DNA from: a virus
Length of the DNA: 64,000 nucleotides
Virus record (IMG/VR): IMGVR_UViG_3300044695_003432
Location: 1 to 64,000 of that record
Reading direction: 5' to 3' (one strand)
Part shown: in pieces, positions 1 to 44,091 of the stretch
Position numbering within the stretch: position 1 is the first letter of the stretch
How the letters are laid out: every line of letters starts with the position of its first letter
The notes under the pieces: generated by a model
Databases searched by the model: none
The model's input: the letters and a program-made list of their open reading frames with translations, nothing else
What the model was told of the DNA's origin: nothing
Program-made: the position numbers and the translations under genes

Positions 1-247
1 CGCTCGTGGGCGTGCGCGGCGTTGGCCCGTGCCTGCGCATCCACCACGGGAACAACGTCACGAAAACAAGATTTCTCGTCGTTCTTGTTTTCTTGCGGGG
101 CGGGCTTAGGCAACTCCGCTTTACCACTGTTTGCGGTAGGAAAATCTGGGGGCGTTTCCTTTACTAGCCGCGCGTTCCCAGACGCCTCTGCTGTCAAAAC
201 CGGCGATGTTGCCTTTGGCTGACACTTCTCCCCTTCGACGGGGGTGA
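1..247. repeat. Copy 1 of a near-identical direct repeat (copy 2 at 43820-44072)
   Basis: cgctcgtgggcgtgcgcggcgttggcc... matches 43820 onward with 2 substitutions in the first ~210 bp, then diverges. Confidence 0.95.
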
Positions 248-452
248 GGTGGTAGCCCCAGGCCTTCAGCAGCTCCTCCGCGAGATGCCCCGGAATGTCC
301 TGTTCTTCCGTGTGGCGGTGAACCTCGCTCGGAACCCAATGATCGCGTTCGCCGACGACATGGAAGTTGATCCCGCGGCGGTACTGGAACAGCCACGCAT
401 GACCGGGCTTACTCGTCCACCCGTCGCCAACCATCACGTCGATCGTCTTCAT
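1..452 (-). CDS. Hypothetical protein, runs off the left edge; homologue of 43573-44091 with a longer N-terminus
   Basis: Manual translation from ATG 452: MKTIDVMVGDGW...TSPVLTAEASGNARLVKETPPDFPTAN...; ATGA overlap with the upstream gene. Confidence 0.75.
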   Translation of the reverse strand, partial: MKTIDVMVGDGWTSKPGHAWLFQYRRGINFHVVGERDHWVPSEVHRHTEEQDIPGHLAEELLKAWGYHLTPVEGEKCQPKATSPVLTAEASGNARLVKETPPDFPTANSGKAELPKPAPQENKNDEKSCFRDVVPVVDAQARANAAHAHE

Positions 453-793
453 GCTGCCACCGTCCTTTCCGTTGCCGCCCGAATCTGTGCCTTCGCCCAC
501 ACGCGGGCCGCTGCTTCCTGCAATGAGCCAGCGAACCACACGCCGCCCAATCCGATTCCCTTGTCGCCGTCCGCTATTGCTTCCGCCACCGACGCGACGG
601 CCTTGATAACGCTGCGGTAGCCGCTGTATCCCACAACGCTAGCGACCTGTTCCAGTGTCGCGCTCGTGTAGTGACGCAGCGTGTACGACGCCAGTTGCTT
701 CGCGTACACCGCGCGGGGTGTGCCGTGGGTTTCTTCCCGCACCTTGACTTCCTCGCGTGCCGCTTCCATGACGTACCTGAATGGAATCACCAT
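449..793 (-). CDS. Stand-alone DnaA C-terminal (domain IV)-like helix-turn-helix protein
   Basis: PRAVYAKQLASYTLRHYTSATLEQVASVVGYSGYRSVIKAV resembles the DnaA domain IV pattern; start overlaps the dnaB stop. Confidence 0.6.
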   Translation of the reverse strand: MVIPFRYVMEAAREEVKVREETHGTPRAVYAKQLASYTLRHYTSATLEQVASVVGYSGYRSVIKAVASVAEAIADGDKGIGLGGVWFAGSLQEAAARVWAKAQIRAATERTVAA

Positions 794-2202
794 GCCTGCC
801 CTCCGCTTTCGTCGATGTTCTCGAACCGCGTGCGTTCCGCGTTCCAACGCAGATCAACAACGCCCGTCGGCCCGTTTCGCTGTTTCGCCACGATCAACTC
901 GGCCTTGCCAACCTTGTTGGGGTTCGCGGCCAACCACTCGGGATCGCTGATGTGGTAGTAGTCCTCGCGGTGCAGAAGCAGCACCACGTCGGCATCCTGT
1001 TCGATCGAGCCTGACTCGCGTAGGTCGCTCATGCGGGGCTTATTGCCCTCGCGCGACTCAGCCCCGCGATTGAGCTGTGACAGGCAAATGACCGGCACGT
1101 CCAGTTCGCGGGCCAGGGACTTGATGCCACGGCTGATCGCCGAGACTTCCACCTGTCGGCTCTCGCGTGCCTGTGCGGGGCTGGTCAACAACTGCATGTA
1201 GTCGATGACGATGGCACACACCGGGACGCCCTCACGCTTGCGGGCGAGAACGCGGCGGCGCGCCATTGTGCGGAGTTGGGTCACGGTCAACCCCGCCTTG
1301 TCGATGATGTCGATCGGCATCTTGGCAACCGCGTCGGCGGCACCGAGAACGCGGCGGTACTGGTCGCTGCCCATTGTGCCGTTGCGGAGAACGGGCAGGT
1401 CCACGCCCGCGCGGGCGGACGCGATGCGGTCCCACAGGGCTTCGGCGGACATTTCCAAAGAGAACAGCAGGATCGCCCCCGCCTCGGTTTCGCAGATGCC
1501 CTCGGCCATGTTCACGGCCAGGGCGGTCTTACCCATGCTCGGGCGGGCGGCGACGATGACCAACTCGCCGGGTTGGAAGCCGCTGGTCATGGCGTCGAGC
1601 CGGAAGAATCCCACCTTGACGCCCCGGTTGCCCTTCGGGGAGTCCAGTGCCGCGAGCCGCGCGGTCGTCAGTTCCTTCATGGTGCGAACCACGGCCTGCG
1701 ACTTGGCCTCGGTCAACTCGATAGCCCCGCTCTGGTACTGGTCGAGAACCACAACCACGGCGTCGGAGTTGGTCGGGTCCACTTGGTACGCATTGTGGAC
1801 AGCCGAGGCCGCATTGGTCACGAGGCGGCGAAGGGATGCGGACTGGCCGACGATCTTGGCGTAGTTCAACGCCGTTGCCGCCGAGGGCACACTGTCGGCG
1901 AGTTGCTGTAGGTACTCGACGCCACCAACGGCCTCGAACAGATTGCCGTTCTTGATCGCCTCGACCAATAGCACGAGGTCGATGCGGCCCGTGCGGTCGA
2001 TGATGTCGCACGCCACCCGGTAGATCGCCGAGTGCCGCTCGTCATAAAAGTCCTCAGGGCTGGCGATGTAGGTCTGGACTTCGGCGAGGACGTTCGGGTC
2101 AAGCAGGATGGACCCGAGCAGGCTCATCTCGGCATGGACCGCCGTGGGCACGGGGCGATTGAACAGGGCTTCGAGCTGGACGACGGGTGCGTTACGCTGC
2201 AT
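787..2202 (-). CDS. dnaB: Replicative DNA helicase DnaB
   Basis: AARPSMGKT Walker A, IDYMQL, LSQLNR, SDLRESGSIEQDAD, KQRNGPTG; probable start MQRNAP at 2202. Confidence 0.97.
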   Translation of the reverse strand: MQRNAPVVQLEALFNRPVPTAVHAEMSLLGSILLDPNVLAEVQTYIASPEDFYDERHSAIYRVACDIIDRTGRIDLVLLVEAIKNGNLFEAVGGVEYLQQLADSVPSAATALNYAKIVGQSASLRRLVTNAASAVHNAYQVDPTNSDAVVVVLDQYQSGAIELTEAKSQAVVRTMKELTTARLAALDSPKGNRGVKVGFFRLDAMTSGFQPGELVIVAARPSMGKTALAVNMAEGICETEAGAILLFSLEMSAEALWDRIASARAGVDLPVLRNGTMGSDQYRRVLGAADAVAKMPIDIIDKAGLTVTQLRTMARRRVLARKREGVPVCAIVIDYMQLLTSPAQARESRQVEVSAISRGIKSLARELDVPVICLSQLNRGAESREGNKPRMSDLRESGSIEQDADVVLLLHREDYYHISDPEWLAANPNKVGKAELIVAKQRNGPTGVVDLRWNAERTRFENIDESGGQAW

Positions 2203-3097
2203 GGTGGCCCTCCTTGACCATCGCCACGAACTCGGGCGGGGGTGTATTGATGAACTGAGACTTGGGCCAATTGGCATACTTGGCGTGCTTGGCCTTCACA
2301 GCCGCTACGATTCGTTCTACGGCGTCCGAAGGCAGTTGACGGACCATCAGGGCATCCGACTCTCGGGCGTCTCTAATCGAATCTAATGGCGTTGTAGCCT
2401 TGAGCCAGGGTTCACCCGCGAGCCAACGGTCGATGCGCGGGGCAAACCGATCCGCCCATCCGGGATTGCTCTTGGCCTTCGCAAGTGCGGCCATGATCGC
2501 CGGTGCATGTTGGTCAAGGTTCTTGCGATACCAGTGCAACCGGGCGTGTCCGGGGTCGGGCCGCTTGTTCTCGGGGTAGGCGTGGAAGAACACCTCAAAC
2601 GGCTCGACGGCGTTAGAACCAGAAGACAGAATACATTCTTCTTCTTCATCTTCTACGAAACGGTTATCCGTTTTTGCCGAGGGGGGGATAAGGGGGGGGT
2701 TATCCGAACTTCCAACCCCCCGGTTATCCGAACCCCTTTTCAGGGCAGGATTGCCACCTTTGGCCCCGTTCTCCTTGTTCTTCTCAGACAGTGCAGCGTC
2801 CCGAACCATGCGGCGGCAGAAGATAACGCCGTCCTCAATCGAGTAGACGCCAGCGTGTTCAAGTTCGGCGAGCAACGCCCGGACCTCGGCGGCGTCGGCT
2901 CCCACGTTCCGCGCCAGTTCCTCCGGCGTCGGCGGTCTATTGCGGACCAACAGATACCCGCGCCGTTCGGATTCGTACATGATGCAGATCATCTCCCACC
3001 AAAGCCCTCTCGCCGCGAGCGAACACGCCCGGACCTCGGGGTCTTTCTTCCAGTCCCCGATATAGAACTGCATTGCTGGGCGTTTGTCCTTGGCCAT
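2192..3097 (-). CDS. Phage replication initiator (lambda O-like role)
   Basis: N-terminal RPAMQFYIGDW..D...CSLAARGLW typical of phage initiators; GAKGGNP linker with internal iterons; directly upstream of the helicase. Confidence 0.75.
   Translation of the reverse strand: MAKDKRPAMQFYIGDWKKDPEVRACSLAARGLWWEMICIMYESERRGYLLVRNRPPTPEELARNVGADAAEVRALLAELEHAGVYSIEDGVIFCRRMVRDAALSEKNKENGAKGGNPALKRGSDNRGVGSSDNPPLIPPSAKTDNRFVEDEEEECILSSGSNAVEPFEVFFHAYPENKRPDPGHARLHWYRKNLDQHAPAIMAALAKAKSNPGWADRFAPRIDRWLAGEPWLKATTPLDSIRDARESDALMVRQLPSDAVERIVAAVKAKHAKYANWPKSQFINTPPPEFVAMVKEGHHAA
2662..2733. repeat. Iteron-like repeats (putative origin) inside the initiator gene
   Basis: GGTTATCCG at 2662, 2698 and 2722, plus an inverted GGATAA near 2686. 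Confidence 0.6.
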
Positions 3098-3121: not shown

Positions 3122-3310
3122 TCACTTCCACCACGTCTGTCCCGTCGTCTTCCCGTTCCGTCGCGTGTAGTCCCGTTGTCTCAGCTTGGACTCGTGAACC
3201 GCTTGCATGTGCGTGTGTTCGCCGGTGCTGCGTATAGCGTCGGCTATACAGGTGACGCAGAGCTTGCGGGTCGGACTGTCAAGCGGGGCTTGACACTTGG
3301 GGCATCTCAT
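3122..3310 (-). CDS. Small zinc-finger protein
   Basis: CPKC...CVTC; coupled to the upstream gene. Confidence 0.55.
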   Translation of the reverse strand: MRCPKCQAPLDSPTRKLCVTCIADAIRSTGEHTHMQAVHESKLRQRDYTRRNGKTTGQTWWK

Positions 3311-3711
3311 TCGGTCCTCCTTACGGTCATCACTAACTTCGCATCGTCACCCTTGCTCACCGTCATTGGAAGGTGCGTTAGGCCCGAGTCGTCGTCGATC
3401 AACCCCGCGTCCCTCAGCCCGTCGAAGTACGCCTTGCACCGGGCGAGCAGGTTGTCGTGGTCGCGCTTGCGGGCGTCCTCGAAGGTCCAGGCGAGTTGGA
3501 CCGATGCCCGTTCCCATCGCGGCTCGTCGCGGTTGAGGGCACCCATCGCCACCAACTTCGCGGCCTGCCGGTGCTGCTTCGTGACCTTCGCCTTTGCCAT
3601 GTAGTGCGGGCGTGCGTTCGGCGACAGCATGGGGCTTGGTACGGGGAGCGTGAGTACGACGTGGTTCATGGAGTCCTTTCCGTTATCCCTCGTTGATTTC
3701 CGCCTGTTCAT
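3307..3711 (-). CDS. RusA-like Holliday junction resolvase
   Basis: LPVPSPMLSPN, RKRDHDNL..CKAYFDGLRDAGLIDDDS. Confidence 0.85.
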   Translation of the reverse strand: MNRRKSTRDNGKDSMNHVVLTLPVPSPMLSPNARPHYMAKAKVTKQHRQAAKLVAMGALNRDEPRWERASVQLAWTFEDARKRDHDNLLARCKAYFDGLRDAGLIDDDSGLTHLPMTVSKGDDAKLVMTVRRTE

Positions 3712-5693: not shown

Positions 5694-6110
5694 TCAACTG
5701 CCCAAACTCTCCACGCCTGCGGGCGTGCTGCCCCTGAAAATCACGAGGCAAGATGGGAACGGCGCGCCGGTCTTTGCCGTTCCGAACTTGAGCCGCCCGC
5801 GAATGAAACGGATCTCGCTTGCCTTCAACGCGAAGCCGTGCCACCAACGGGTGCAGGTGCGGGCCGGAACTAGAAGCACGACCGTTTTCCCAGCCGACGA
5901 TTCCAGAGCCGCTTTTTCCATCCACGGGTAGATGTCGCTGTACGGCGGATTCACGAAGCAAGGCGACTTCCACTCGCGGAGCAAGCCGTTCTCGGTTCCA
6001 CCAAGCGGGCACGGGTCGTCCGCGAACTGGAACTCGGCATTGAGGGCGTCGTAGACTGCTGCCGGTGTCGCCCACTCATCGCTCGCGCTGGAGAAGAGGA
6101 CGCGGTTCAC
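5694..6110 (-). CDS. Phage DNA N6-adenine methyltransferase
   Basis: SDEWATP, DPC, FVNPPYS, LLVPART, IRFIRGRLKF, APFPS. Confidence 0.9.
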   Translation of the reverse strand: MNRVLFSSASDEWATPAAVYDALNAEFQFADDPCPLGGTENGLLREWKSPCFVNPPYSDIYPWMEKAALESSAGKTVVLLVPARTCTRWWHGFALKASEIRFIRGRLKFGTAKTGAPFPSCLVIFRGSTPAGVESLGS

Positions 6111-7040: not shown

Positions 7041-7451
7041 CTAAAAGGGCAAATCGTCGTCGGGAAGTGCGTTGGCGGTCGCCGCTCGCGTGGCGGGCTG
7101 CTGCTGCTCGCCCCCGCCCTTGCTGTCAACGAAGTGGAACGTGTCAACGACAACCTTCAACTTGGACTGCTTCTTGCCCGTGTCCTTGTCGTCCCACTGG
7201 TCGAGCTTCAACCGGCCCTCGATGAGAACGGGGCGACCTTTGCTCAGGTACTTCGCCATCACCTCGGCGGTCTTGCCCCAGGCTTCGCAATCAACGAACG
7301 TGACTTCTTCGCGCTTCTCGCCGCCCTGCGTGGTGTAGTTGCGGTTGAGGGCGAGGCCGATGCGGGCGATCTGTTGACTACCCCCGACCGCTTTCAGTTC
7401 AATGTCACGGGTGAGGTTGCCCATCAGCGTGACCCTATTCAGACTCGACAT
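7041..7451 (-). CDS. ssb: Single-stranded DNA-binding protein
   Basis: LNRVTLMGNLTRDIEL, IEGRLKLDQW, C-terminal DDDLPF. Confidence 0.97.
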   Translation of the reverse strand: MSSLNRVTLMGNLTRDIELKAVGGSQQIARIGLALNRNYTTQGGEKREEVTFVDCEAWGKTAEVMAKYLSKGRPVLIEGRLKLDQWDDKDTGKKQSKLKVVVDTFHFVDSKGGGEQQQPATRAATANALPDDDLPF

Positions 7452-7884
7452 CTTCACTGTCCTTTCCGCCCGCGAACACGCGGGCACGCTTCACTACCAA
7501 CTCGTCCTTCGTCTCGATCTTGAACCACTCGCGGGGCATGTCGGGGTGCGCCTCCATGACGCTCGACGCCTTGTAAGCCGTCTTTGTCTGGAACCGAAAC
7601 AACTCGTCCGGCCCACCCTTTTCCAACAGCCGTTGGCCAACCAGTACGGGTTCAACAACCTTCTTGGTCGTCTTGCGCCCGACGTAGTACCGGATGTCGC
7701 CGTTCACAATCTCCCGCGTGCCCAAGTACGCAATTGCCGCATTGCTGACGTTGGCCTTGAGTTCCCGCACGCGGGCGTTGAGCGTGTCAATCGCGTCGTA
7801 CATGCGGATCAGGTCGTGGTCGTTACCCATGCCGGACTCGATAATCACGGCGGCATCTTCAACCTGTTCAATGAGTCCCTTCAC
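7435..7884 (-). CDS. Hypothetical protein
   Basis: Coupled between the ERF and SSB genes. Confidence 0.6.
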   Translation of the reverse strand: MKGLIEQVEDAAVIIESGMGNDHDLIRMYDAIDTLNARVRELKANVSNAAIAYLGTREIVNGDIRYYVGRKTTKKVVEPVLVGQRLLEKGGPDELFRFQTKTAYKASSVMEAHPDMPREWFKIETKDELVVKRARVFAGGKDSEDVESE

Positions 7885-8513
7885 GCGGCCTCCGTTTCGA
7901 GAATGAACAGGACGGAACCGGCTTCTTCATCCGTCATCTTCGCGCTGACCTTCACGCCAGTAGCCGCGATGATCGGCTTCCACTTGTCCGAGTTGTCGGC
8001 GGAAATCTTCTCGCCGATGCGCCCCTCGATGAGCTTGAACAGCTTTTCCTTCGCGGTCATCTGCTTTGGCGTCTCGGCCACAGCCTTGCGTGCAACCTCG
8101 GCGGCGGCAGGCTTGTCGCCGCGTCCGCTGGCGTGGTTCCCGTCGTCGTCGTCCGTGACGACTCCCACCACGGCAGCAAGGGCGTAGCGGCGGGCGTAGG
8201 TGATCGCGGAACCGAACGCCTGCGGGTCGTTCTTGACCGGCTTCATCGCCAGGGTTGACGACATCCATTGGCCGGATGAATGGATGAGGACGGTTTCAAC
8301 CTCGACGTTGCCGTTGGCGTCCGTGGTCGGGTGCTGGCTGATCGCAAGCCCATTGGCGGCGAGTTCACCCTTGCACGCATCCCACACGGAAGACAGGTCT
8401 GCGTATGACGACTTGAAGAAGGGGTTGGCCCGGTCCTTGATCGCAGACTTCATCTTCGTCTGCGCCTTGCACAGTGCCGCCGCCAGTTCGCCGATGCTTT
8501 CGCTCTTGTTCAT
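7881..8513 (-). CDS. ERF-family single-strand annealing protein
   Basis: NPFFKSSYADL, PQAFGSAITYARRYAL, DDDDGN. Confidence 0.92.
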   Translation of the reverse strand: MNKSESIGELAAALCKAQTKMKSAIKDRANPFFKSSYADLSSVWDACKGELAANGLAISQHPTTDANGNVEVETVLIHSSGQWMSSTLAMKPVKNDPQAFGSAITYARRYALAAVVGVVTDDDDGNHASGRGDKPAAAEVARKAVAETPKQMTAKEKLFKLIEGRIGEKISADNSDKWKPIIAATGVKVSAKMTDEEAGSVLFILETEAA

Positions 8514-9362: not shown

Positions 9363-9686
9363 CTACGAACGCCTCGCTGCTCGATGCAAAGTGCGGTGAT
9401 TGCTCGCCAGTTCTTCAACGGCAACGCGGGTGTCCAAGAGAGGGCGGTCCATCGCCCTTGCGAGCATCGCTGTTGACTCGCCGAAAAACTCGTCCGTGAC
9501 AAACAACATCCGTGCGATCGCGTCGGCAATCTCGATTGAACTGCCTTCGCTGTAGATGCGTGCCGACGCCGCGCTGTTGGAGTCGAAGGGAATCACGATG
9601 ACCAGTGCGCGGGTGTCAACGAGGTCGTCGGCAAGCCGCTCGCGCGTCTCTTCAACCTCGGGCGACTGGTATCGGGGCTGGCTCAC
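9363..9686 (-). CDS. Hypothetical protein
   Basis: GAGG RBS; GTGA overlap with the small regulator gene. Confidence 0.55.
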   Translation of the reverse strand: MSQPRYQSPEVEETRERLADDLVDTRALVIVIPFDSNSAASARIYSEGSSIEIADAIARMLFVTDEFFGESTAMLARAMDRPLLDTRVAVEELASNHRTLHRAARRS

Positions 9687-9898
9687 GCCGCCACCTCACT
9701 CTCGACGGGTGCGGCCTGCTCGTTCGCCCTTGAGAGGTCGAACGCCTGAGCCTGCACGGTCGGTGAGGCGTTACGGAACCCACGAACGATCGCGGCGAGA
9801 ACCGCTGGCATTCGCAAGCCGTGTTCCTCGGCCAAAGCCCGTATATAGTTGTGGTCGGGTCCGAAAACCTGAACGGTGGTGATCTTCTTTGCGGCCAT
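9683..9898 (-). CDS. Small regulator in the Cro position, ribbon-helix-helix-like
   Basis: Divergent from CI; TTVQV strand followed by two short helices. Confidence 0.6.
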   Translation of the reverse strand: MAAKKITTVQVFGPDHNYIRALAEEHGLRMPAVLAAIVRGFRNASPTVQAQAFDLSRANEQAAPVESEVAA

Positions 9899-10007
9899 GT
9901 CAATATATTATCGGGAACCGGCTTCACTGCAAGTCCTAGAACGGTAAAATCGGGGACTTTTCCCGTAAATCCATTGACCGCATAGGCTTATTGACTATCG
10001 TGTATTC
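9899..10007. promoter_or_regulatory. Divergent lysis/lysogeny promoter region
   Basis: Plus strand: TTGACC(9974)-16-TATCGT(9996), 6 nt before the CI ATG. Minus strand: TTGCAG...TAATAT just before ATG 9898. Confidence 0.6.
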
Positions 10008-10670
10008 ATGTCCCTAGTGTTGGACATGGCAATGCTGACGCCCATCGCGCGTTTTCTCGCCAATCGGCGCGAGGAACTTGGCTTGACTTTGGAGCAAGTC
10101 GGCGCGCTTGTGGGCAAGTCGAAACAGTCCGTGTGGCAGCGCGAGCAGGGCGAGGCGAGGGTAAAACTACGCGAGGCCGAGGCGTGGTCAAAGGCCCTTC
10201 GTGTCCCGAAGGAAACGATTGCGCGTCTCATAAAGAGCGACAGCGGAAATCAGATTCCCGTCATCAACCGCACCGCAGCAGGCCGCGTAGTTGATACCCT
10301 CGAATGGGGTACCACTAGCGTGGAGGGCTTCATGTACGTTGACAGGGATGTCCAGACGGATGAAGACAATTTGTTTGCGGTCGTGGTTGACGGGTCGAGC
10401 ATGGCCCCGACACTGGAAAACAAAGACATTGCGGTTGTGAAGTCGGTTCCGATGGATGCCGACTCCATGCCCGCACCTGGCACCGTCGCCTATGTGCGGC
10501 TCGGGCCTGACTCCAAGACTCCGGGCGGGATGTTGTGCCGCTGGCACCCGCAGCGTGACGGAACGTACCGACTCGACAAGGACAACCCGGCGTTTGCGTC
10601 GGTCGTTGTCCCGCGTGAGCATGTCGAGCAGTTCGGCATCGTGATCCAGCGGCGCACAACCGTGAGGTGA
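10008..10670 (+). CDS. CI/LexA-like repressor (XRE HTH plus S24 peptidase domain)
   Basis: RREELGLTLEQVGALVGKSKQSVWQREQG; AAG cleavage-site motif; VDGSSMAP catalytic Ser region. Confidence 0.9.
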   Translation: MSLVLDMAMLTPIARFLANRREELGLTLEQVGALVGKSKQSVWQREQGEARVKLREAEAWSKALRVPKETIARLIKSDSGNQIPVINRTAAGRVVDTLEWGTTSVEGFMYVDRDVQTDEDNLFAVVVDGSSMAPTLENKDIAVVKSVPMDADSMPAPGTVAYVRLGPDSKTPGGMLCRWHPQRDGTYRLDKDNPAFASVVVPREHVEQFGIVIQRRTTVR

Positions 10671-11019: not shown

Positions 11020-11066
11020 ATGCTTTCGTAAAGCATAGGTCCAGGGTTCAAATCCCTGAGGTGGCT
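11020..11066 (+). other. attP-like core: 3' portion of tRNA-Thr(CGT)
   Basis: ATGCT-TTCGTAA-AGCAT anticodon arm, AGGTC, CAGGG-TTCAAAT-CCCTG, AGGTGGCT; no canonical D-arm; abuts the integrase 3' end. Confidence 0.8.
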
Positions 11067-26817: not shown

Positions 26818-26820
26818 GTG

Positions 26821-29538: not shown

Positions 29539-29539
29539 A

Positions 29540-35306: not shown

Positions 35307-36347
35307 TTAGGCGTCGGAGTCGTTGACCTCAATAACGCCAGCGCACCACGGATGCAACTGACCGGCACCCATGAGAACCTGCGACTTGACGAACACGGTG
35401 TTGCGACGCTCATCGGGCTGCATGACCGACTCGACGCCGCCATGCTGCACGATGCCGACCGGGGCCATGCCGTACTGACCACCAGCCGCGACGATCGCCA
35501 CGGGGCGACCAACGGCGATGTTGCTGTCAGTGACCTCAAACGTGCCCTGGTACTTGCTCGGGCCGGTCGTCACGTTGGCGGACGGGATGCGGTTCTTGGC
35601 GACCATCACCTCAAAGCCCGCGATCTTGCCAATCAGACGGCTCTGGAGGTTGTTGCCGCTGGCGTTCTGGGCGTACTGCACGTCCCAGATGCCAGTGTCC
35701 TTCGCCAGAACGCGACGGATGTACGGGTCGATCCACATGTAGCGACCGGCCTCGGGCACGTTGTCGTTGTCCATCGACTCGGCGAGCGTCTGTGCGTCGT
35801 CGAGGAAGTTGGCCGCGCCGGTCGAGGACACGGGGTAAGCCGCCGCAACCGTCTCTTCGTCGCGGGTGACGCGATTGCCGCCGCTGTGAACGGTCAGGCC
35901 GTTCTTGCTGACAGCCGCACCGCGAGCCGTGAGAACAAGCAGGCGGGCGAGGCGGTTGTCGTAGAAGCGGGCGATACGCTCGCCGGTCTTGCGGGCAAGC
36001 GGGCCGAGGATGTCGAAGTTGGCAATCCGCATCTGGTCGAGCGGAACGTCGTGGTGAGCCACAACGATGCCGTCGATCGTGATGTTGCCCTCGTCAATCT
36101 CGAACTGCTGGCCGAGCAGTTCATCGCCGGGAGTGTGTTCCTCGGGATCGGGCGTATCGGCCATCAGGTAGAACTGGTGGCTGTTGCCCTGGCTGATGAT
36201 CTTGCGCTGAATGGCGGGGCTGTCGGCGAAGATAACCTCATCGCGGAAAGCCTCGACAACGCCCATCTGAAACATTTCCTCGGGCGACAGGGCATACTCG
36301 GTGCCTGCCGCGTTGTTGAGGAAACGACTCGGGTTACTGGAAGACAT
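35307..36347 (-). CDS. Major capsid protein (T7 gp10-like)
   Basis: RKIISQGNSHQF, HTPGDEL, ITIDG, MGAGQLHPWCAG. Confidence 0.9.
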   Translation of the reverse strand: MSSSNPSRFLNNAAGTEYALSPEEMFQMGVVEAFRDEVIFADSPAIQRKIISQGNSHQFYLMADTPDPEEHTPGDELLGQQFEIDEGNITIDGIVVAHHDVPLDQMRIANFDILGPLARKTGERIARFYDNRLARLLVLTARGAAVSKNGLTVHSGGNRVTRDEETVAAAYPVSSTGAANFLDDAQTLAESMDNDNVPEAGRYMWIDPYIRRVLAKDTGIWDVQYAQNASGNNLQSRLIGKIAGFEVMVAKNRIPSANVTTGPSKYQGTFEVTDSNIAVGRPVAIVAAGGQYGMAPVGIVQHGGVESVMQPDERRNTVFVKSQVLMGAGQLHPWCAGVIEVNDSDA

Positions 36348-36553
36348 GGATTCACCTCGGGGGTGGAAAGTGGTGGAACGTGCAAACACGCTTCCGGCAC
36401 TTGCCGCGCGCGAGGTGTCCGTGGGCCTCTTGCGAGGGTGTCCACAGGCTCGTCTGCTGGCTAACTGTGACCGTGGCGGCGTGACGCTCGCGGCCTATGG
36501 CTGTGCGTCACGCGACCTGAAAACACGCGGGCGGCTTTCACCGCCCACGGGTG

Positions 36554-36964: not shown

Positions 36965-37822
36965 TTACGAGAAGCGGCGGGTGATTTCCGCCATGTTTGC
37001 CTTGAGCGTGCGCTGTGCGAGAATGTCGCCAGCCATCGCACGCTTGTTGAGTTCCTTGAGTTCCGCCAAGTCCTTCGGTGGCGCGGTGGAGTGCGACGGC
37101 ATGGTCCCGATGACGGGCGAACCGCCCACGTTCTTCTCGTCGTACCGGGCCTTGATGACGCGAACGGCGTCAAGTGCCACCTGCGGGTTGGTGTCGTTGA
37201 GTTTCGCGGCGTAGACCGACAACTCGCCCTCGGGCACGTTGGACTTCGCCCACGTCATAAGGCGGTCGTAGTTCTCCTGCGAGCCGCCCGCGATCTTGAA
37301 CGCCGCCTGCTTGGTCTGCTCTTGGACCTCACGGGCACGCTCGGCCTTGATCTGTGCCGACTCCACCCGCCCAACAAAGATGTCGTTGAGAGCATCCTTG
37401 TTGAGCTTGTAGACCTTTCCGTCCTTGCCCTTGACTTCGATGCTGCCAAAGGCTTTCAGCGAGTCGTCGTCGATGCTCTTGTTCTTGACAAGGTTCTCGC
37501 CGAACTTCGCGGTGTCGAGGCCGATCGCCTTGAACAACCCGTCAATGTCGGTGTCGGCGTACTCGGTCGGCTGCGGGGCGGGAGCGTTACCCGCCAGAGC
37601 CTTGTAGAACGTGACCGCCGCGTCCTTGCTGGCGAAGTAGCCGCCGTCGCCGTAGACGGGTGCGTTGTCCGCCACCTGAACGCCACGGTGCTTGAACAAC
37701 TCGCGTGCGCCCTGCTGGAACGCCGCCTCGTCCTTGAACTTCCCCGCGATCAACTCGGGCTGCGGTGGTGCCGCTCCCGGCGTCGGTGCGGCTTGCACCG
37801 GCGCGGTTCCTGTCTCTGACAT
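36965..37822 (-). CDS. Capsid scaffolding protein (gp9-like)
   Basis: LIAGKFK, AGGSQENYDRLMTWAKSN. Confidence 0.85.
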   Translation of the reverse strand: MSETGTAPVQAAPTPGAAPPQPELIAGKFKDEAAFQQGARELFKHRGVQVADNAPVYGDGGYFASKDAAVTFYKALAGNAPAPQPTEYADTDIDGLFKAIGLDTAKFGENLVKNKSIDDDSLKAFGSIEVKGKDGKVYKLNKDALNDIFVGRVESAQIKAERAREVQEQTKQAAFKIAGGSQENYDRLMTWAKSNVPEGELSVYAAKLNDTNPQVALDAVRVIKARYDEKNVGGSPVIGTMPSHSTAPPKDLAELKELNKRAMAGDILAQRTLKANMAEITRRFS

Positions 37823-37832
37823 TCAATTCCTT

Positions 37833-39395
37833 TCAGGCTTGGGGTGCGGCTTGCTGCTGCGCAATGCCACCAGCGGCGCGTGCCGCTTCCTGAATGACTG
37901 CCGTTGCCCCGTCCGCCTTCACTTGGTCCGCCATCGCTTTGCGAGCCTCTTGCTCCAACTGCGCTGGCGTCTTGATAAGCCCAGGCTCGGCCACCCCCAA
38001 TGAACGAGCCGCGAGACTGAGAAGCACGTTCTGATCCAACTGCTTGACCGCCTGCTCGCCCATCGCACCCGCGAGTTGTGCCAACTGCATCGCACCCTCG
38101 GCGCGACGCTTCTGGTTGATCGCGGCGATACCCGTGGTCGATACCACGTCGGCGAACTTCATCTTCTTGGCGTCGAGCAACCCGCTCCGCGTGCCCATGT
38201 CGATCGCGGCCCACAGGAGCGGCTTCTGCTGCTGGTCGTGGATGGTCGAGAACAGGTCGCCAAGCCAACCCTGCAACTGCTCGGCGGTCTGCTTCCATGC
38301 CGTGCTGTGACGGCCAGCCTCGCCCTTGGGAGCGGCGTCGGCGTCAAGGAGCATGGTCTTGGATAGGTCGTCTTGGCACCGCATCCAAACCTGCTGAACA
38401 ACTTGGAAGTCGGCAAGTTTCTCGACGCCGAGCATGGCAACGTCTTGCAAGCGACCGCCCTCGACGCGGCCACCGACGATGATCTTGCCCGACTCGATAG
38501 CCAAGTCCTCGGGACGGAGCGTGCTGCCGGTGCCGATGACGGGGTTGAACTTGCTGGCGTGTTCCGCCCAATCCTTCATGCGACCGGCGAAGAACTCGTT
38601 GGACTCGAAATCGCCGCCGTGCAGTTCAATCAGGCCGCGCCCGTAGTGGTCGTTGCCCGCCCGCTTGAAGTCGGTTTGGAAGATGCGGGCCGTTTCGTGC
38701 TGAGCCTCGAACACCTGCTTGTCTTGGATTTCCTGCGTCAGCACCCACGAGTCGTCAGACTGACGCTTGTAGAGCGTGAATACGTCAACGTCCTCGCCTT
38801 CCTTGACCTCGATTTGGGCCTGAATGTCAGCGGGCAGGCGTGCGGGGTTGACGCATTCCTTGATGACGTGGTAGTCAACCTCGCCGTAGGCGTCGCGGCG
38901 GGTGCGGTACTGGTCGCGGGAGAACACGCGCTTGGCGAAGTCCTCATTCCCGCGAAGGCCGATGCCCTCAAGCGTGCTGCCGGTGATAAGCAACTGCGTG
39001 AGCGAAATACCTGTCTGGGCGTAGAAGCCGGGAACGACTTTCCGCTTGCTCTTGACGTGGCTGCTCTCGATCGCCGCCTGAATCTTCACGCCCTCGACGT
39101 ACAGGGCGTTGACGATAACCGTGTATTCCTCGGGGCTGATGGAATACTTGCTCTCAGGCTCCACGTCCAACTCGAACCAGCCGTCGCCGGGGAACAGGAC
39201 GGAGCGGAGTTTGCCGACGCAGTTGGCGATGCCACGGGCGGCAAGCGAGTTGTTGGGGTTGCGGAGCCGGTCGCCAGCCTGATAGCCCTGCTCCGGCATC
39301 ACGAACGGCATGGAAATCGACGCCGCCCAACGCGCCCGATCCAAGACCTCCGACGCATCGCCGGTGCCTTGGTCGAACAGTTTTTGGATGCTCAT
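37833..39395 (-). CDS. Portal/head-tail connector (gp8-like)
   Basis: ARGIANCVGKL..LFP...WF, RRDAYGEV, HYGRGLIE. Confidence 0.9.
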   Translation of the reverse strand: MSIQKLFDQGTGDASEVLDRARWAASISMPFVMPEQGYQAGDRLRNPNNSLAARGIANCVGKLRSVLFPGDGWFELDVEPESKYSISPEEYTVIVNALYVEGVKIQAAIESSHVKSKRKVVPGFYAQTGISLTQLLITGSTLEGIGLRGNEDFAKRVFSRDQYRTRRDAYGEVDYHVIKECVNPARLPADIQAQIEVKEGEDVDVFTLYKRQSDDSWVLTQEIQDKQVFEAQHETARIFQTDFKRAGNDHYGRGLIELHGGDFESNEFFAGRMKDWAEHASKFNPVIGTGSTLRPEDLAIESGKIIVGGRVEGGRLQDVAMLGVEKLADFQVVQQVWMRCQDDLSKTMLLDADAAPKGEAGRHSTAWKQTAEQLQGWLGDLFSTIHDQQQKPLLWAAIDMGTRSGLLDAKKMKFADVVSTTGIAAINQKRRAEGAMQLAQLAGAMGEQAVKQLDQNVLLSLAARSLGVAEPGLIKTPAQLEQEARKAMADQVKADGATAVIQEAARAAGGIAQQQAAPQA

Positions 39396-40276: not shown

Positions 40277-42676
40277 CTAGCACATTGCATAAGCGGCGTT
40301 TATGACGCTGCTTGGGTCATAGTCGCCGTTGATGGGCGGTGCTGGCAACTCAATGTCAGGGTGCTGCTCGCGCCACTGGAACCACAAGTCCGTAAGCAGC
40401 GGCGTCTGGTGGATCGCCGCGAACTGCTCGCGTGCGATCAACCCGACTTCCTCGGCAGTCTCCGCGTGTGACCAGAACGAGTCATGCACGGCAAGGAACG
40501 AAATGCCCTGGTTGCGGCAAGTGATCGCCGCCTTCATCATCGCGGCAGCATCGACGCCATGCACGAAGTTGGGAGCCGAGCCGGACACCTGCTTGCGGGC
40601 GTTGACAGACCGCTCATTGTCCATTTGCATCCAAAGAACGCCAAAGCACGTTTCAACTTGCACTGCGTTCTTTGCGTAGTACGGCTGCACGCACCGCCAG
40701 CCGATCGGCGTCCGCCACATCACCGGGCGGTTGGACTCTGCGATCTGACCGGCGCACGTCCGCACCCAATCCATCGCCGCCGTCACAAGCGGGAACACCT
40801 CACGCACCGACTTCAACACCGACTTCGCCAGAATCGACGCGGCCTCCTTCGCGTGTTCGCTCTCTAGCCCGAGCTTCTTGAACTTGCCCATGATCTGATC
40901 GCGTGCCCCGTACTCCGTCACGCCGTAGGGCGTCGTCATCACGGGCTGCTTGCACACTTCTTTGCCGTACTTCCTGACCGCGTGCAGGGCCATTGCCACA
41001 GCCTCGGGCGTGCCCTCCCCGTCTCCCGCCAAGTACGTCAGCACCCGCTTGGCAATCTCGGCGTACAGCGCACTCGGCTTGTCGTTCTCGACCAAGTTCA
41101 CGAACGGTGCCGCCGTCGCGTCTCGCGTCATGGCAACGAAGTGCTGGAACCCGCTCGCCGTCGCGTCCCGCTGGATGGGCAGGTGTACCGCGTGGTCACG
41201 CGACTGCAACGCCTTGCACGCGGCGAGGAACTGCAACGGGTTCTCGGCCTGCCGCCAGAAGTCGGTGTTGAACGGGTCGCGGGCGGACATGAACACGTCC
41301 CGCATGTTGGACTTCACCCATTCAACCCGGTCGTCGAATGAAATCTTGTCGTGGCCGTACATCGTCGCGGCCTGGATTGCCACCTGCCGCATCACCCCGT
41401 CGCCGTCGCGGGCCTCGGCGAACTGGAACAGCGACCGCTCCATGTCCCCGCCGTAGTGGTTGAAGTAGTGGGGGCGTGCGTACATCCGGCCCCGGAAGTC
41501 GCCCTGGTGCGGGACGTAGAAGCGCGGCTCGTTCTCGAACTCGCGGGCGACCTGCCGACACTGGAACGCGGCATAGAACGCGGACTCGTTCTTGATGTTC
41601 TTGCGGTGAATCTCGACACATTCACCGCGCCACTTGCGGAGAATGTCCGCGTCCTCGGTCTGCGGCTTGGGCGGGTTGTTGAACGCCGTGGACGCGGGCA
41701 ACCCTGCCACGTCGCCGCCTTCCTCGATGAGCCGGTCAATCACGCCCAGCATCCAACCGTTCACCTTGAGCGGGGTGTTGCCCAACGCCTCCATGCCGTC
41801 GATGAACTCGCCCAACTCCCCGATGCCGTCGCGGATCAACTGCCGCTGCGCCTTCGTGGACTTCGTGAGCATCCCCATGCGGATCGTGACGTAACTACCG
41901 TGGGTGCTGTCCGCGTGCTTGTACGGGGGAATCACCATCGGCGGGTAGACCGGCGAGACTGCCGCCAACGCCTGATGGTCGTGCATGATCGTCGCACGAA
42001 TCTTCGGGTCGATGGTGAACATCGAACGCATCTTCTTCCCGGTGCCGACGTTCTTGCGGTGGAAAGCCAGCGCAAAGGGCTGCGATTCATCGTTGCAAGA
42101 GCAAGCCCCGACAGCATCCCACACGAACGCCGCCCCGACCTTGACGCACAGAACGCTGTCGTAGATCGCCTCGGGGTCCAGAATCTTGGCGTACCGATTC
42201 ACGTCCATCGCGGCAATCGCGTTCTTTCGCCGCTTCTTGAACATGGCTTTGAGAAGGTCTTTCTTCTTCTCCTTCTGCCAGCGGTCGAGTTGGGCCTGCG
42301 CCAGAATCGCACGGCCAACCGCGATGTAGAGTTTCTGCTGCGTCACACCTTCGGGTTCGCGGAGCAGGCAGTTGAGCATCTGCGTCAGCGTGATCGCCGC
42401 CGCCTTGTTGGGCGACACCAGCGAGTAGATGCCGACGTACTCGGTGGGGGTTTTCTTGTTCTCGCCCACCAGTGATCGCCGCTTCTGGCGGATGGCGAGG
42501 GTCATCGCCACCGCCCAATGAGCGAGCCAGCGACGGCCCGGCGCGGTGGATGCGTAGCGGCCCTTGTCGTGGGCCTTGTCGCGGTCGCGGAAGTAGCGGA
42601 GTCGTCCTGCCTCCTGCGCCTTCTTCTCGATGAGTATTTGCCGGTCGAAGTCCGTTCCGTACAGCAATCCGCTCAT
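40277..42676 (-). CDS. T7-type single-subunit DNA-directed RNA polymerase
   Basis: PMVIPP, DFRGRMY, DATASGFQH (motif A), KQPVMTTPYG (motif B), PNFVH, VHDSF (motif C). Confidence 0.97.
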   Translation of the reverse strand: MSGLLYGTDFDRQILIEKKAQEAGRLRYFRDRDKAHDKGRYASTAPGRRWLAHWAVAMTLAIRQKRRSLVGENKKTPTEYVGIYSLVSPNKAAAITLTQMLNCLLREPEGVTQQKLYIAVGRAILAQAQLDRWQKEKKKDLLKAMFKKRRKNAIAAMDVNRYAKILDPEAIYDSVLCVKVGAAFVWDAVGACSCNDESQPFALAFHRKNVGTGKKMRSMFTIDPKIRATIMHDHQALAAVSPVYPPMVIPPYKHADSTHGSYVTIRMGMLTKSTKAQRQLIRDGIGELGEFIDGMEALGNTPLKVNGWMLGVIDRLIEEGGDVAGLPASTAFNNPPKPQTEDADILRKWRGECVEIHRKNIKNESAFYAAFQCRQVAREFENEPRFYVPHQGDFRGRMYARPHYFNHYGGDMERSLFQFAEARDGDGVMRQVAIQAATMYGHDKISFDDRVEWVKSNMRDVFMSARDPFNTDFWRQAENPLQFLAACKALQSRDHAVHLPIQRDATASGFQHFVAMTRDATAAPFVNLVENDKPSALYAEIAKRVLTYLAGDGEGTPEAVAMALHAVRKYGKEVCKQPVMTTPYGVTEYGARDQIMGKFKKLGLESEHAKEAASILAKSVLKSVREVFPLVTAAMDWVRTCAGQIAESNRPVMWRTPIGWRCVQPYYAKNAVQVETCFGVLWMQMDNERSVNARKQVSGSAPNFVHGVDAAAMMKAAITCRNQGISFLAVHDSFWSHAETAEEVGLIAREQFAAIHQTPLLTDLWFQWREQHPDIELPAPPINGDYDPSSVINAAYAMC

Positions 42677-43009
42677 TCAGCCTCCTTTGTCCAAAGCCTC
42701 CACCGCCGCCGCGAGTGCGAGGAAGCGGGTGTTTCCACCGACGCCATTCTCGTACTCCCAATAGGCACAGTCCCCTACCGCGTCGTCGCACAAGTTGATC
42801 GTTCCCAACCTCTCCACCATCGCCCACGCGATCGCGGAGAGGGCGTGAAGCGGGTGGCACCATCCGTCAAACTCGGAACCGTCGTGCCAGTGTTCCGCGT
42901 CGAGTCCGTCGTGGTGGCGGCGTTGCACCGTCTTCGGCCACCACTCCGCGTCCTTGTACGTTTTGTACAACTCCACCGCCTTCGCGTGGTCTGCTTCGGT
43001 GAATGTCAT
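42677..43009 (-). CDS. Hypothetical protein
   Basis: Coupled ATGA overlap. Confidence 0.55.
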   Translation of the reverse strand: MTFTEADHAKAVELYKTYKDAEWWPKTVQRRHHDGLDAEHWHDGSEFDGWCHPLHALSAIAWAMVERLGTINLCDDAVGDCAYWEYENGVGGNTRFLALAAAVEALDKGG

Positions 43010-43260
43010 GGCTTCCCTTTCCGCTCGGTGCCGTTGAGGATGGCGAGGATGTCGCGCTTGTGGATGTACCAGCGGTCGGGTGCCGCCTGCTCGCACAGTT
43101 CCCTCACCCTGCGGAGTTTCTCGCGGTCGTTCGTCCACTCGCGGGTGAGGACGGTCACGATGTCGCGATCCGTGTCGCGATCGCCATTTGCGGGCTTCTT
43201 TTCGCCCCGAATCGCGTCACTTTGTCGCGATTTCTGTCGCGATTCACGCTTCTTCGCCAT
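43006..43260 (-). CDS. Hypothetical protein
   Basis: GGAGG RBS. Confidence 0.55.
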   Translation of the reverse strand: MAKKRESRQKSRQSDAIRGEKKPANGDRDTDRDIVTVLTREWTNDREKLRRVRELCEQAAPDRWYIHKRDILAILNGTERKGKP

Positions 43261-43462
43261 CGCTCGCCTCCTTGATCGTCTTCTCCACTTCCTGCCGAAT
43301 GACGTACCCGAGTGCGGGCAGGTCCACGCCGAACAGCCGACGATACTCACGGGCACGGTTGACGATGCGGTTGGCACACTCGTTGGCGGCGATCTGGTCG
43401 TCGGTCCAGCCGCCGAGGTAGAGCGTGAGCGACTGCGTGTTTTGGTCAAGTGGAAGGGGCAT
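43244..43462 (-). CDS. Hypothetical protein
   Basis: AAGGAGG RBS. Confidence 0.55.
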   Translation of the reverse strand: MPLPLDQNTQSLTLYLGGWTDDQIAANECANRIVNRAREYRRLFGVDLPALGYVIRQEVEKTIKEASDGEEA

Positions 43463-43572
43463 CGCTCGCCTCCTTCTTCGAGTTGTCAAGTGCGGCTTGA
43501 CTGCTGGGGGAACTATTCGATGTTGTCGAAAGGTTCACTTGCTTCTCCTTTTCCACTTTCCACCCCGAAACG

Positions 43573-44091
43573 CTAATTTGCGGGGCGTGATTTAGTGCTG
43601 GGTTGAATTTCGTCGGCGATGGTGATGCCCGCTTCGGCAAGAGCAGCGCGCCACGCATGATCGCGGGCATGGATCATCCGCATCTCGGCGTCGGTGAACA
43701 GGCCGGGCGTTTTCGCAACGGTCGGTGCCTTCACCACCATCGCGGCGGGCTTGGGTGCGGGCTCAACTGCGGCGAGGCGGGATTCGAGGGCGGTGATGCG
43801 CTTCCATGCCTCGTGTAGCCGCTCGTGGGCGTGCGCGGCGTTGGCCCGTGCCTGCGCATCCACCACGGGAACAACGTCACGAAAACAAGATTTCTCGTCG
43901 TTCTTGTTTTCTTGCGGGGCGGGCTTAGGCAACTCCGCTTTACCACCGTTCGCGGTAGGAAAATCTGGGGGCGTTTCCTTTACTAGCCGCGCGTTCCCAG
44001 ACGCCTCTGCTGTCAAAACCGGCGATGTTGTCTTTTGCTGACACTCGGGCTTCTCCCCTTCGCCGGGGGTGATCGTGTTCTCGCTACTCAT
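43573..44091 (-). CDS. Hypothetical protein spanning the A/B junction (shared gene)
   Basis: Near-identical to the ORF at the window start over its central part. Confidence 0.75.
   Translation of the reverse strand: MSSENTITPGEGEKPECQQKTTSPVLTAEASGNARLVKETPPDFPTANGGKAELPKPAPQENKNDEKSCFRDVVPVVDAQARANAAHAHERLHEAWKRITALESRLAAVEPAPKPAAMVVKAPTVAKTPGLFTDAEMRMIHARDHAWRAALAEAGITIADEIQPSTKSRPAN
43820..44072. repeat. Copy 2 of the direct repeat shared with 1-247
   Basis: Direct sequence comparison. Confidence 0.95.

Follow-up and report, generated by a model that had tools for sequence, protein, structure and literature searches.

A probable temperate freshwater podovirus joining a lambda-style early half to a T7-type RNA polymerase and virion

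Autographiviridae lacking a DNA polymerase (MPP-C, AG-11) and temperate T7-like phages (Pasto, LUZ100) are both already known. DNA polymerase is no longer a core gene of the family, the groups AG-1.2-1.4 and AG-11 being examples (PMC12361551). AG-11 comprises 23 uncultured marine genomes described there as lacking DNA polymerase, SSB, exonuclease and endonuclease, with a primase and a helicase encoded upstream of the RNA polymerase (RNAP). The MPP-C cyanopodoviruses are isolated T7-like phages of marine picocyanobacteria, with 37-38 kb genomes and no identifiable DNA polymerase (PMC9860041). Pasto (Rhizobium), LUZ100 (Pseudomonas) and the Rhizobium vTRX32-1-like phages are temperate T7-like phages with an integrase and a tRNA-linked attachment site at the left early side (Pasto record and the papers PMC10134795 and PMC8631192). 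The pelagiphage HTVC019P is placed with them here, its gene content being taken here from the LUZ100 paper (PMC10134795).

The window analysed here is the 64,000-nucleotide stretch at positions 1 to 64,000 of an 85,132-bp IMG/VR record. Its positions 1-43819 are referred to as phage A, and a second T7-like phage in the same record as phage B. We consider it probable that 1-43819 is the complete genome, some 43.8 kb long and either circularly closed or terminally redundant, of a temperate podovirus from freshwater that has not been cultured. Its virion half and its RNAP are T7-type, and the other half is a mosaic temperate module in the style of lambda. A sequence-only reading of this DNA had listed an integrase, a CI-like repressor, ERF, SSB, an iteron-bearing initiator, DnaB, RusA, an RNAP and a T7-type virion, and Pfam and PHROG searches recovered every one of them.

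Phage A is similar to AG-11 in having a T7-type RNAP but no DNA polymerase and no T7-type SSB, exonuclease or endonuclease, and in carrying replication genes upstream of the RNAP which are only distantly related to those of T7 (PMC12361551). AG-11 is marine and is described with a primase and a helicase, while phage A is a freshwater phage that has DnaB and an initiator bearing iterons but lacks a Toprim or Prim-Pol primase. The AG-11 text mentions no CI/S24 repressor, ERF or RusA (PMC12361551), all of which are found in phage A. Like MPP-C, phage A is a T7-like podovirus without an identifiable DNA polymerase; the small genomes and marine picocyanobacterial hosts set MPP-C apart (PMC9860041). 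With the temperate T7-like phages it shares the RNAP, the T7-type virion and a single direction of transcription (Pasto record; PMC10134795; PMC8631192). However, Pasto encodes T7-type SSB, endonuclease, primase/helicase, DNA polymerase and exonuclease downstream of the RNAP (Pasto record), LUZ100 is described as having the same set (PMC10134795), and vTRX32-1 is reported to have DNA polymerase and helicase genes (PMC8631192). Phage A has no such set, and the interval from int to the RNAP is taken up by lambda-style genes instead. The premise that Autographiviridae normally keep their own DNA polymerase and primase is weakened by DNA polymerase having been dropped as a core gene in print, and part of the architecture (no DNA polymerase, replication genes upstream of the RNAP) already occurs in AG-11. 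No account of the complete lambda-style early half turned up in the literature within our search reach.

The early half resembles that of lambdoids (lambda, P22, HK97 and relatives) in its divergent repressor switch, int/attP, ERF- or Red-type recombination, RusA and an initiator gene with iterons inside it; use of the host polymerase would be a further likeness. Unlike lambdoids, phage A has a T7-type virion, DnaB replaces the P-type loader and no N or Q family was found. In lambda, the early operon ends with the late activator gene. In phage A, an RNA polymerase gene stands where Q would.

All phage A genes but two are on one strand, and unless stated otherwise the features below lie on the minus strand. 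The T7 order RNAP-portal-scaffold-capsid-tail-internal proteins-TerL is kept. It comprises scaffold and portal (36965..39395; phrog_1018; Pfam Head-tail_con, 2.8e-14), a T7 gp10A-like major capsid protein (35307..36389; Gp10A-like, 7.6e-13), a tail nozzle in two ORFs with a tail protein (27339..30331; Phage_nozzle, 4.8e-47; phrog_457, phrog_446), the gp16-like, gp15-position and gp14-like internal virion (ejection) proteins (20327..27339; phrog_342, 3.5e-55; phrog_805, 3.2e-6) and a T7-type large terminase (16599..18356; Terminase-T7_RNaseH-like, 1.9e-25). Four large virion-module proteins (717, 542, 395 and 268 aa), the first of them in the internal virion region, matched no Pfam or PHROG family in the scans carried out. 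Phage A thus has two traits of Autographiviridae, a single-subunit RNAP and T7-type virion and packaging genes in T7 order. A third, the T7-type replisome downstream of the RNAP, was not found in it by six-frame Pfam searches; this classical feature is no longer universal in the family (PMC12361551).

The replication and recombination genes begin with a DnaB-type replicative helicase (787..2277; DnaB_C, 1.8e-90; DnaB, 7.2e-26), whose best phage match has 38% identity. Next to it is a replication initiator or replisome organizer (2192..3097; PHROG 9327, 13246 and 270, covering primosomal protein, replisome organizer and replication initiation, 5.5e-10) with an internal putative origin: CGGATAACC occurs three times at 2662-2730 inside the gene, adjoining an A+T-rich run. 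RusA Holliday-junction resolvase (3307..3711; Pfam RusA, 8.5e-5) scores 23.6 bits against a cut-off of 22.8. A Dam-type N6-adenine methyltransferase (5694..6110; Dam, 6.6e-22), an SSB of the bacterial/PHROG-44 type (7041..7424; phrog_44 single strand DNA binding protein, 7.2e-37) and the ERF single-strand annealing recombinase (7881..8513; ERF, 5.6e-29) follow; the ORF next to SSB (7435-7884) has no Pfam or PHROG family. A clamp-loader-like AAA+ module is located at 13094..13732 (phrog_5846 'clamp loader of DNA polymerase', 1.8e-25; RFC small subunit in PDB, 6e-7).

The claim that no DNA polymerase, primase or T7 exonuclease is recognisable in phage A has held. When the entire 85-kb record was searched in six frames with Pfam at E<=1, DNA_pol_A (above cut-off), Toprim_2 and 5_3_exonuc_N matched phage B only (73.5, 76.4 and 72.7 kb), so that the replisome genes of phage B serve as a positive control within the same record; DNA_pol_B, Prim-Pol and Phage_endo_I had zero matches in the same searches. 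One further, sub-threshold DNA_pol_A match, at 67.3 kb, also lies in phage B. DNA_pol_A was likewise absent from all three relatives' records searched whole, and the DNA polymerase, primase-helicase and exonuclease of phage B had no match in 24 close loci. The absence and the gene order make replication of phage A by host polymerase (Pol III) plausible: the initiator would bind its iterons and the phage DnaB would recruit host primase and Pol III. This is an argument from absence, and the four large family-less virion-module proteins count against it. Marine loci L020-L044, which we guess to be MPP-C/AG-1-like, are without DNA polymerase, yet keep a T7-type primase-helicase and exonuclease.

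The product of the single-subunit (T7-type) RNAP gene (40277..42676; RNA_pol, 8.6e-94; RPOL_N, 8.9e-16) aligns end to end with T7 RNAP (PDB, 2.4e-58) and with mitochondrial RNAP, including the ...QRDATASGFQH..., ...MTTPYGVT... and ...VHDSFW... blocks. Its best identity to isolates is 28% (LUZ100). As had been proposed, the gene comes last, on the downstream side, in a string of early and replication genes that share one direction, and the virion genes follow it directly. Strong sense-strand terminators were found only at 36549-36526, 34697-34674 and 32423-32394, and none in the DnaB-to-RNAP interval. Host RNAP could express RNAP, portal and scaffold, since these are upstream of the first strong terminator. 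At 36499..36549 an intrinsic terminator (10-pair hairpin and T run) precedes a conserved GCGTGAC(G/A)CACAGCC element and the structured leader of the capsid gene; the element and GCAA hairpins are kept down to the 45% group, with compensating changes. A repeated phage-promoter consensus was not found over the late region, the sole candidate being ahead of the capsid gene. AGTGACACGGCGC is the only clearly repeated strand-biased motif and occurs in the early-left operon and integrase, not in late genes. Pfam and PHROG scans of the small early proteins revealed no Q-like or N family, though small divergent proteins could escape such scans. Gene order, terminators and this absence make it plausible that the RNAP is the late switch of phage A. 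Against this stand the missing late promoter consensus, the early location of AGTGACACGGCGC and the access of host RNAP to the RNAP, portal and scaffold genes.

The 761-bp non-coding stretch at 15522..16282 (from the gene model) is the likely place of the genome ends, judging from the layout of Pasto. It contains an early promoter at 15590-15563 (TTGCAA-16-GATAAT), with a palindrome, TTCTAGAATATTCTAGAA, just upstream. On induction or infection, host RNA polymerase would transcribe the minus-strand early genes from two starts: the promoter at about 15.56 kb, serving the small genes and int, and a promoter opposite cI, serving ERF, SSB, Dam, RusA, initiator and DnaB and reaching the RNAP gene with no strong terminator between. 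The phage RNAP would then take over the virion genes, set behind strong intrinsic terminators abutting the next start codons. The capsid gene, with its own conserved post-terminator element and leader, would be laid out like the promoter-gene 10-terminator unit of T7.

The lysogeny module includes a tyrosine integrase (11048..12142; Phage_integrase, 2.7e-10; Phage_int_SAM_5) and a CI-like repressor with HTH and S24 autopeptidase domains (10008..10670, plus strand; HTH_31, 3.5e-9; Peptidase_S24, 3.3e-8, covering 1-116 of 116). Divergent from the latter across a 109-bp gap is a small protein in the Cro position (9683..9898), which has no Pfam or PHROG family. The gap itself (9899..10007) contains two sigma70-like sites on the plus strand and, by eye, TTGCAG..TAATAT on the minus strand. 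The tRNA-derived attP was borne out by direct reading: the predicted core at 11020..11066 (plus strand) is the 3' part of tRNA-Thr(CGT), with anticodon arm, variable loop, T arm and 3' acceptor strand, and overlaps the integrase stop. ARAGORN called no full-length tRNA in the sequence. The phage would integrate at the tRNA-Thr(CGT) gene by its own integrase and be kept silent by the self-cleaving S24 (LexA/CI-type) repressor. An integrated copy, which the sequence-only reading had proposed to look for, was not found: a scan of genome contigs yielded only a 3.6-kb fragment in a MAG, and integrase scans only free phage contigs. The case for lysogeny is therefore made by the genes and attP.

Phage A could instead be effectively virulent, its lysogeny genes being relics (a view discussed for LUZ100) and its RNAP driving most transcription as in T7. 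Such a phage would leave no integrated copy to be found, and LUZ100 is reported not to have given stable lysogens despite its integrase (PMC10134795); a GTGACAC-core 13-mer ahead of the early-left genes could also be a phage-RNAP promoter. We regard this as unlikely, as phage A has int, attP and the CI/S24 repressor in intact form and three relatives (G001, G002, L062) conserve them at 49-58% identity. Besides, L062 has the same tRNA-Thr fragment in the same place with compensating T-stem changes, which are expected if each phage tracks the tRNA of its own host. A temperate phage A remains the preferred reading, and it would be a natural example of a single-subunit RNAP that may be controlled by a CI-type switch, which makes it interesting for regulatory design.

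The 85,132-bp record is not a single genome: two distantly related T7-like phages, A and B (20-32% protein identity), are fused via a common early block of about 1 kb. This near-identical block (43006..43819; self-blastn) acts as a mis-join repeat, and 1-247 matches 43820-44072 at 95.7%. Its depth is raised in all three independent runs studied, and contigs break at its borders. The A:B word depth was about 6-13 to 92-136 in run X2, about 15 to 4-9 in X4 and about 3-6 to 2-7 in X6. A bridge over 43006-44080 was found in none of the 24 pieces listed. It is very improbable that the record is a true molecule, in which A and B recombined within the block to give a co-integrate or tandem double prophage. 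The block would permit such a single-crossover fusion, and A and B do co-occur: of the 21 runs listed (11 studies), 19 contain half or more of the words from a stretch spanning both. However, their depth ratio swings from about 1:10 to about 2.5:1 among runs, loose contig ends carry other flanks at 43006 and 44078, the record's contig starts and stops precisely at the block and carries no host DNA, and each half holds a full virion gene set. The A-to-B join is an assembly path through the common repeat. A viral record rated '100% complete' can thus be two phages fused via a common 1-kb cassette, which calls for caution.

Of the one circular gene order claimed for 1-43819, the gene content stands; the closed circle does not, the stretch being one unit of a two-phage chimeric contig. 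Closure is inferred rather than read, because the contig passes from A to B at 43819/43820. In-silico closure yields a single open 294-codon frame over the joint, its 5' part at 1..500 and the rest at 43573-43819, and 159 of 163 aligned residues of the product are identical to the 172-aa product of phage B. We infer the circular order of phage A, and the same joints are found in G001, G002, L062 and other independent contigs.

The hybrid itself is a genuine lineage and not an assembly artefact, since each of the two joints between the arms is found again in independently assembled IMG/VR contigs. G001 (41,459 bp; CheckV 97%; ends overlapping by 332 bp at 97%) has the entire phage A gene order. 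G002 (33,106 bp) extends without a break from portal through RNAP, DnaB, ERF, CI, int and TerL to nozzle, and L062 repeats the TerL-int-CI-ERF side. The syntenic relatives that the sequence-only reading called for thus exist: a DnaB homologue (91-97% identity) is found no more than 2.3 kb upstream of the RNAP in 7 of 24 close loci, and initiator or RusA homologues upstream of it in three more. That the lambda-style arm (1-16 kb) stems from one phage and the RNAP/virion arm from another is hardly credible, even with one demonstrable false join in this record and a highly mosaic clade, as both joints appear in separately assembled contigs of other metagenomes (G001, G002, L009-L015, L062) and the int-to-TerL joint lies inside the record's contig, outside any repeat.

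The T7 RNAP-plus-virion block can therefore run on a wholly different early programme of repressor-controlled lysogeny, ERF/SSB recombination and iteron initiator with DnaB, with no phage polymerase. The mosaicism is evident where, in the same relatives, DnaB is 91% identical and RNAP 59%. RusA is 93% identical in relatives, and DnaB 91-92% in the loci of seven of them. Other relatives have different temperate-type modules in the position ahead of the RNAP (AAA_24; SNF2 and methylase; initiator and IstB/DnaC-like). In nature the block has been exchanged against several alternative temperate replication modules, which bears on the debate over a temperate origin of Autographiviridae. There is a slim chance that this freshwater clade preserves or has re-created an ancestral T7-like form, a host-replicated lambda-style temperate podovirus with the RNAP as late activator in the place of Q, before the T7 replisome was gained. 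A quick, unrooted IQ-TREE analysis of 22 RNAPs puts the A clade (six rows, support 100) beside two metagenomic RNAPs of 1,200 aa and away from seven named phages and phage B. This position outside the seven named Autographiviridae sampled is compatible with an ancestral form, as is the swapping of temperate replication modules in front of an RNAP-virion block that stays fixed, neither indicating a direction. The split of the nozzle into two ORFs is also seen in G001.

The IMG/VR record IMGVR_UViG_3300044695_003432 is an 85,132-bp viral contig of the linear class with a CheckV completeness of 100, and it contains two RNAP genes (40.3-42.7 kb and 80.2-82.7 kb). A full set of RNAP, portal, capsid, nozzle and terminase genes is present in the unit 1-43819 (phage A) and again in 43820-85132 (phage B), the proteins of the two being only 20-32% identical. 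Self-comparison of the record revealed only two meaningful repeats: 1-247 resembles 43820-44072 (95.7%) and 43006-43145 resembles 84993-85132 (98.6%). These repeats place a block Y(43006-43145)-Z(43146-43819)-X in the middle of the contig, which begins right after Z and ends right before it. Such a layout is typical of an assembly path that runs through two genomes with one repeat in common.

Depth was evaluated by placing contigs from three independent freshwater runs on 37000-51000. Word depth of A-specific DNA, B-specific DNA and the shared block was about 6-13, 92-136 and 50-83 in run X2, about 15, 4-9 and 41-46 in run X4, and about 3-6, 2-7 and 9-12 in run X6. The block borders are contig break points, and the loose ends at 43006 and 44078 carry other flanks. 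No bridge between A-specific and B-specific DNA was found among the 24 pieces listed (120 further pieces exist). On this evidence A and B are distinct phages that share the same waters and were joined in error during assembly. The sequence-only reading had drawn the unit boundaries correctly. Closed in silico, A has a single open 294-codon frame over the joint, and its product shares 159 of 163 aligned residues with a 172-aa protein of B, through the C-terminus.

The early-gene block of about 1 kb (43006-44072 in the window and 84993-85132 in the record) is 96-100% identical between A and B. Since its depth in X4 (41-46) exceeds that of A and B combined (about 21), further phages probably carry it. 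The stretch over the A/B junction (39500-48500) is present, whole or in part, in 20 runs from 11 studies.

In a codon-usage gene model the minus strand carries all genes of A but two, cI (10008-10670, +) and the gene of a small membrane protein (10674-10898, +). Family searches bear out the gene content read from the sequence in both halves: DnaB, integrase, RusA, ERF, SSB, an initiator (initiator/replisome-organizer family) and a CI-like repressor with an HTH and a full S24 domain in the early half; TerL, nozzle, Gp10A-like capsid, portal and RNAP in the T7-type half. Dam has a family match as well, and the virion module adds a gp16-like internal protein, a gp14-like protein, tail proteins and a scaffold. 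The ORF 7435-7884 was rejected as SSB, the family match being to the neighbouring 7041-7424. T7 RNAP and mitochondrial RNAP both align with the RNAP of A over its full length, and the blocks which we take to be the catalytic motifs are conserved. CGGATAACC occurs three times inside 70 bp of the initiator gene and is adjoined by an A+T-rich run.

Two overlapping ORFs, 544 and 190 aa long, encode the tail nozzle (T7 gp12-like, 27339-29538); the shorter one corresponds to the C-terminal end of that family's profile. The related contigs G001 and G002 have the split too, which rules out an assembly error. Between the capsid and tail genes (32449-35282), a 542-aa protein of no family is flanked by two paralogues of PHROG 11997, a family with no assigned function.

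According to the sequence-only reading, A joins a lambdoid switch and replication half to a T7-type RNAP and virion. Protein search and pattern scans outlined a clade of RNAPs that are 43-97% identical to that of A; a single-protein scan of viral contigs with the RNAP gave no match, and an alignment-based scan gave 38 loci. The order RNAP-163 aa-73 aa-portal-scaffold-capsid is kept in all of the 24 close loci with sufficient downstream flank. In 7 of the 24, a homologue of DnaB (91-97% identical; the top two values come from end fragments of 77-79 aa) lies at most 2.3 kb upstream of RNAP, and most of the 7 have an initiator, RusA, SSB or ERF further upstream; another three have initiator or RusA homologues upstream. 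Syntenic relatives were sought and found: G001 (41,459 bp, 97% complete, with overlapping ends) has the entire gene order of A, G002 (33,106 bp) crosses both arm joints without a break, and contig L062 matches A on the TerL-int-cI-ERF side. The hybrid architecture is confirmed as real, and it is recurrent in fresh water.

Other members of the clade have alternative temperate-type modules before RNAP: an AAA_24 recombinase, an SNF2 helicase with a methylase, or an initiator with an IstB/DnaC-like loader. In the same relatives DnaB is 91% identical while RNAP is only 59% identical. The early half is thus swapped in lambda fashion against a stable RNAP-virion block.

The reported lack of a T7-type replisome in A held up in a six-frame search of the whole record (E<=1). 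DNA_pol_A above the cut-off (73.5 kb), Toprim_2 (76.4 kb) and 5_3_exonuc_N (72.7 kb) were matched only in B, which therefore serves as a built-in positive control; B also has a sub-threshold DNA_pol_A match at 67.3 kb. DNA_pol_B, Prim-Pol and Phage_endo_I had zero matches in the whole record. Four proteins of A (717, 542, 395 and 268 aa) had no Pfam or PHROG family match in the scans run, and all of them lie within the virion module. DNA_pol_A is absent from all three of the related contigs G001-G003, and none of the 24 close loci matched the DNAP, primase-helicase or exonuclease of B.

A clamp-loader-like AAA+ module of 212 aa (13094-13732; PHROG clamp loader 1.8e-25, RFC small subunit 6e-7) is located in the early-left operon of this phage without a polymerase. 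It is also found in G002 and L062 (72%), not in G001. The module could engage the host replisome.

None of the isolates is close to A, the best matches being 28% for RNAP (LUZ100), 32% for TerL and 38% for DnaB. A quick unrooted tree built from 22 RNAPs shows the A clade as monophyletic, paired with two metagenomic RNAPs of 1,200 aa and separate from Pasto, LUZ100, Ralstonia P-PSG-11, Aeromonas T7-Ah, Syn5, ParKuw1, Caulobacter Quill and phage B. The sister group in this tree, P0008-P0011, comprises metagenomic single-subunit RNAPs of about 1,200-1,270 aa that are 28-32% identical and have an extra 400 residues.

Temperate T7-like phages are already established, as described for LUZ100 (PMC10134795) and vTRX32-1 (PMC8631192). 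Autographiviridae without DNAP are established too, with the MPP-C cyanopodoviruses (PMC9860041) and the groups AG-1.2-1.4 and AG-11 (PMC12361551) as examples. The marine group AG-11 is described as devoid of DNAP, SSB, exonuclease and endonuclease, with primase and helicase upstream of RNAP; compared by this description, it is the nearest published layout to A. The temperate phage Pasto has a full T7 replisome in its record. Its layout, with terminal repeat, early genes, HTH protein and int before RNAP, is mirrored in A by the stretch 15522-16282 with its promoter into the small genes and int. Terminal repeats of A would be expected near 15.6-16.3 kb. A is a variation on kinds already known, temperate T7-likes and DNAP-less Autographiviridae. 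In the open-access library searched, no description was found of a full lambda-style early half (CI/S24 repressor, ERF, initiator, DnaB, RusA) on a phage with T7-type RNAP.

A distant RNAP group, L020-L044 from IMG/VR, is 27-30% identical in the best segment. In 15 of its 25 loci the exonuclease comes directly after a T7-type primase-helicase, and the DNAP of B had no match in any of the 25. Our guess is that these loci represent the marine cyanopodovirus type without DNAP that is described in print.

TerL is followed by 761 bp of non-coding DNA (15522-16282). At its end are a palindrome and a good sigma70 promoter, TTGCAA-16-GATAAT (15590-15563, -), the best of its kind in the phage, which points into the small genes and int. 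The perfect palindrome TTCTAGAATATTCTAGAA, within 15563-15620(-), lies a few bases upstream of this promoter and may be the operator of the early-left operon. The gap at the cI/cro position contains promoter-like sites facing both ways. No strong terminator interrupts the minus-strand string ERF-SSB-Dam-RusA-initiator-DnaB-shared block-RNAP. Judging from these signals, a plausible mechanism is that host polymerase would read the small genes and int from the 15590-15563 promoter, while a promoter in the cI/cro gap would drive the terminator-free path from ERF to RNAP.

The only strong sense-strand terminators of A are located at 36549-36526, 34697-34674 and 32423-32394, the last two abutting the next start codon. 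The polymerase that transcribes the tail and ejection genes therefore has to read past these terminators or undergo attenuation, much as T7 RNAP does at its terminator after gene 10. Directly after the terminator 36549-36526 there are the element GCGTGAC(G/A)CACAGCC (36499-36513) and a capsid leader of roughly 150 nt. The terminator, element and GCAA-loop hairpins of this mRNA leader (36348-36553) are conserved over the clade (loci L008, L012, L016 and L053). The hairpins covary down to relatives with capsids 32-41% identical, with compensating stem changes CCTC/GAGG, CTTC/GAAG and CCGA/TCGG. The element and leader are consistent with an RNAP-dependent late class, but they make up one site and not a family.

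The asymmetric 13-mer AGTGACACGGCGC is the sole repeated strand-biased motif, with 8 matches against 1.6 expected. All copies are co-oriented on the minus strand within 11264-14556, mostly just before the small early-left genes and the integrase start, and also in int. They are exact in G001 and G002 despite diverged flanks and are absent from B. AGTGACACGGCGC and the capsid element have a GTGACAC core in common. The 13-mer could be a promoter of the phage RNAP or a stoperator-like repressor site. An intergenic 16-mer comparison brought out only this 13-mer family, 14-mers with up to 2 mismatches yielded mostly GC-rich chance repeats, and short cores such as CGTGAC were uninformative. The 150-bp "gap" that separates the 163-aa gene from the 73-aa gene was rejected as a promoter region, being a conserved small gene.

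Scanning of genome contigs found a sole match to A, L006 (WLEH01000148.1, 3,621 bp), which is 98% identical from the RNAP end to portal and was assigned to an Actinomycetota MAG. Elsewhere this MAG lacks both a match to 1-20000 and a matching tRNA-Thr, so L006 was probably mis-binned. The attP-derived tRNA pattern was found in 0 of 401 Actinomycetota genomes. A single-protein scan with the integrase gave no match; an alignment scan gave three loci, all of them free phage forms.

The putative attP core of A (11020-11066, +) overlaps the integrase stop and reads as part of a tRNA-Thr: the anticodon arm, with CGT as anticodon, then the variable loop, the T arm and the 3' strand of the acceptor stem. 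ARAGORN found no whole tRNA. L062 has the same fragment in the same position, with compensating changes in the T stem. A weak Rfam tmRNA match (6721-6849, -; 18.7 bits, gathering score 47, E 0.0011) is placed in the 345-bp gap from SSB to the next gene and may represent a tRNA-like RNA or the remnant of an old attachment site.
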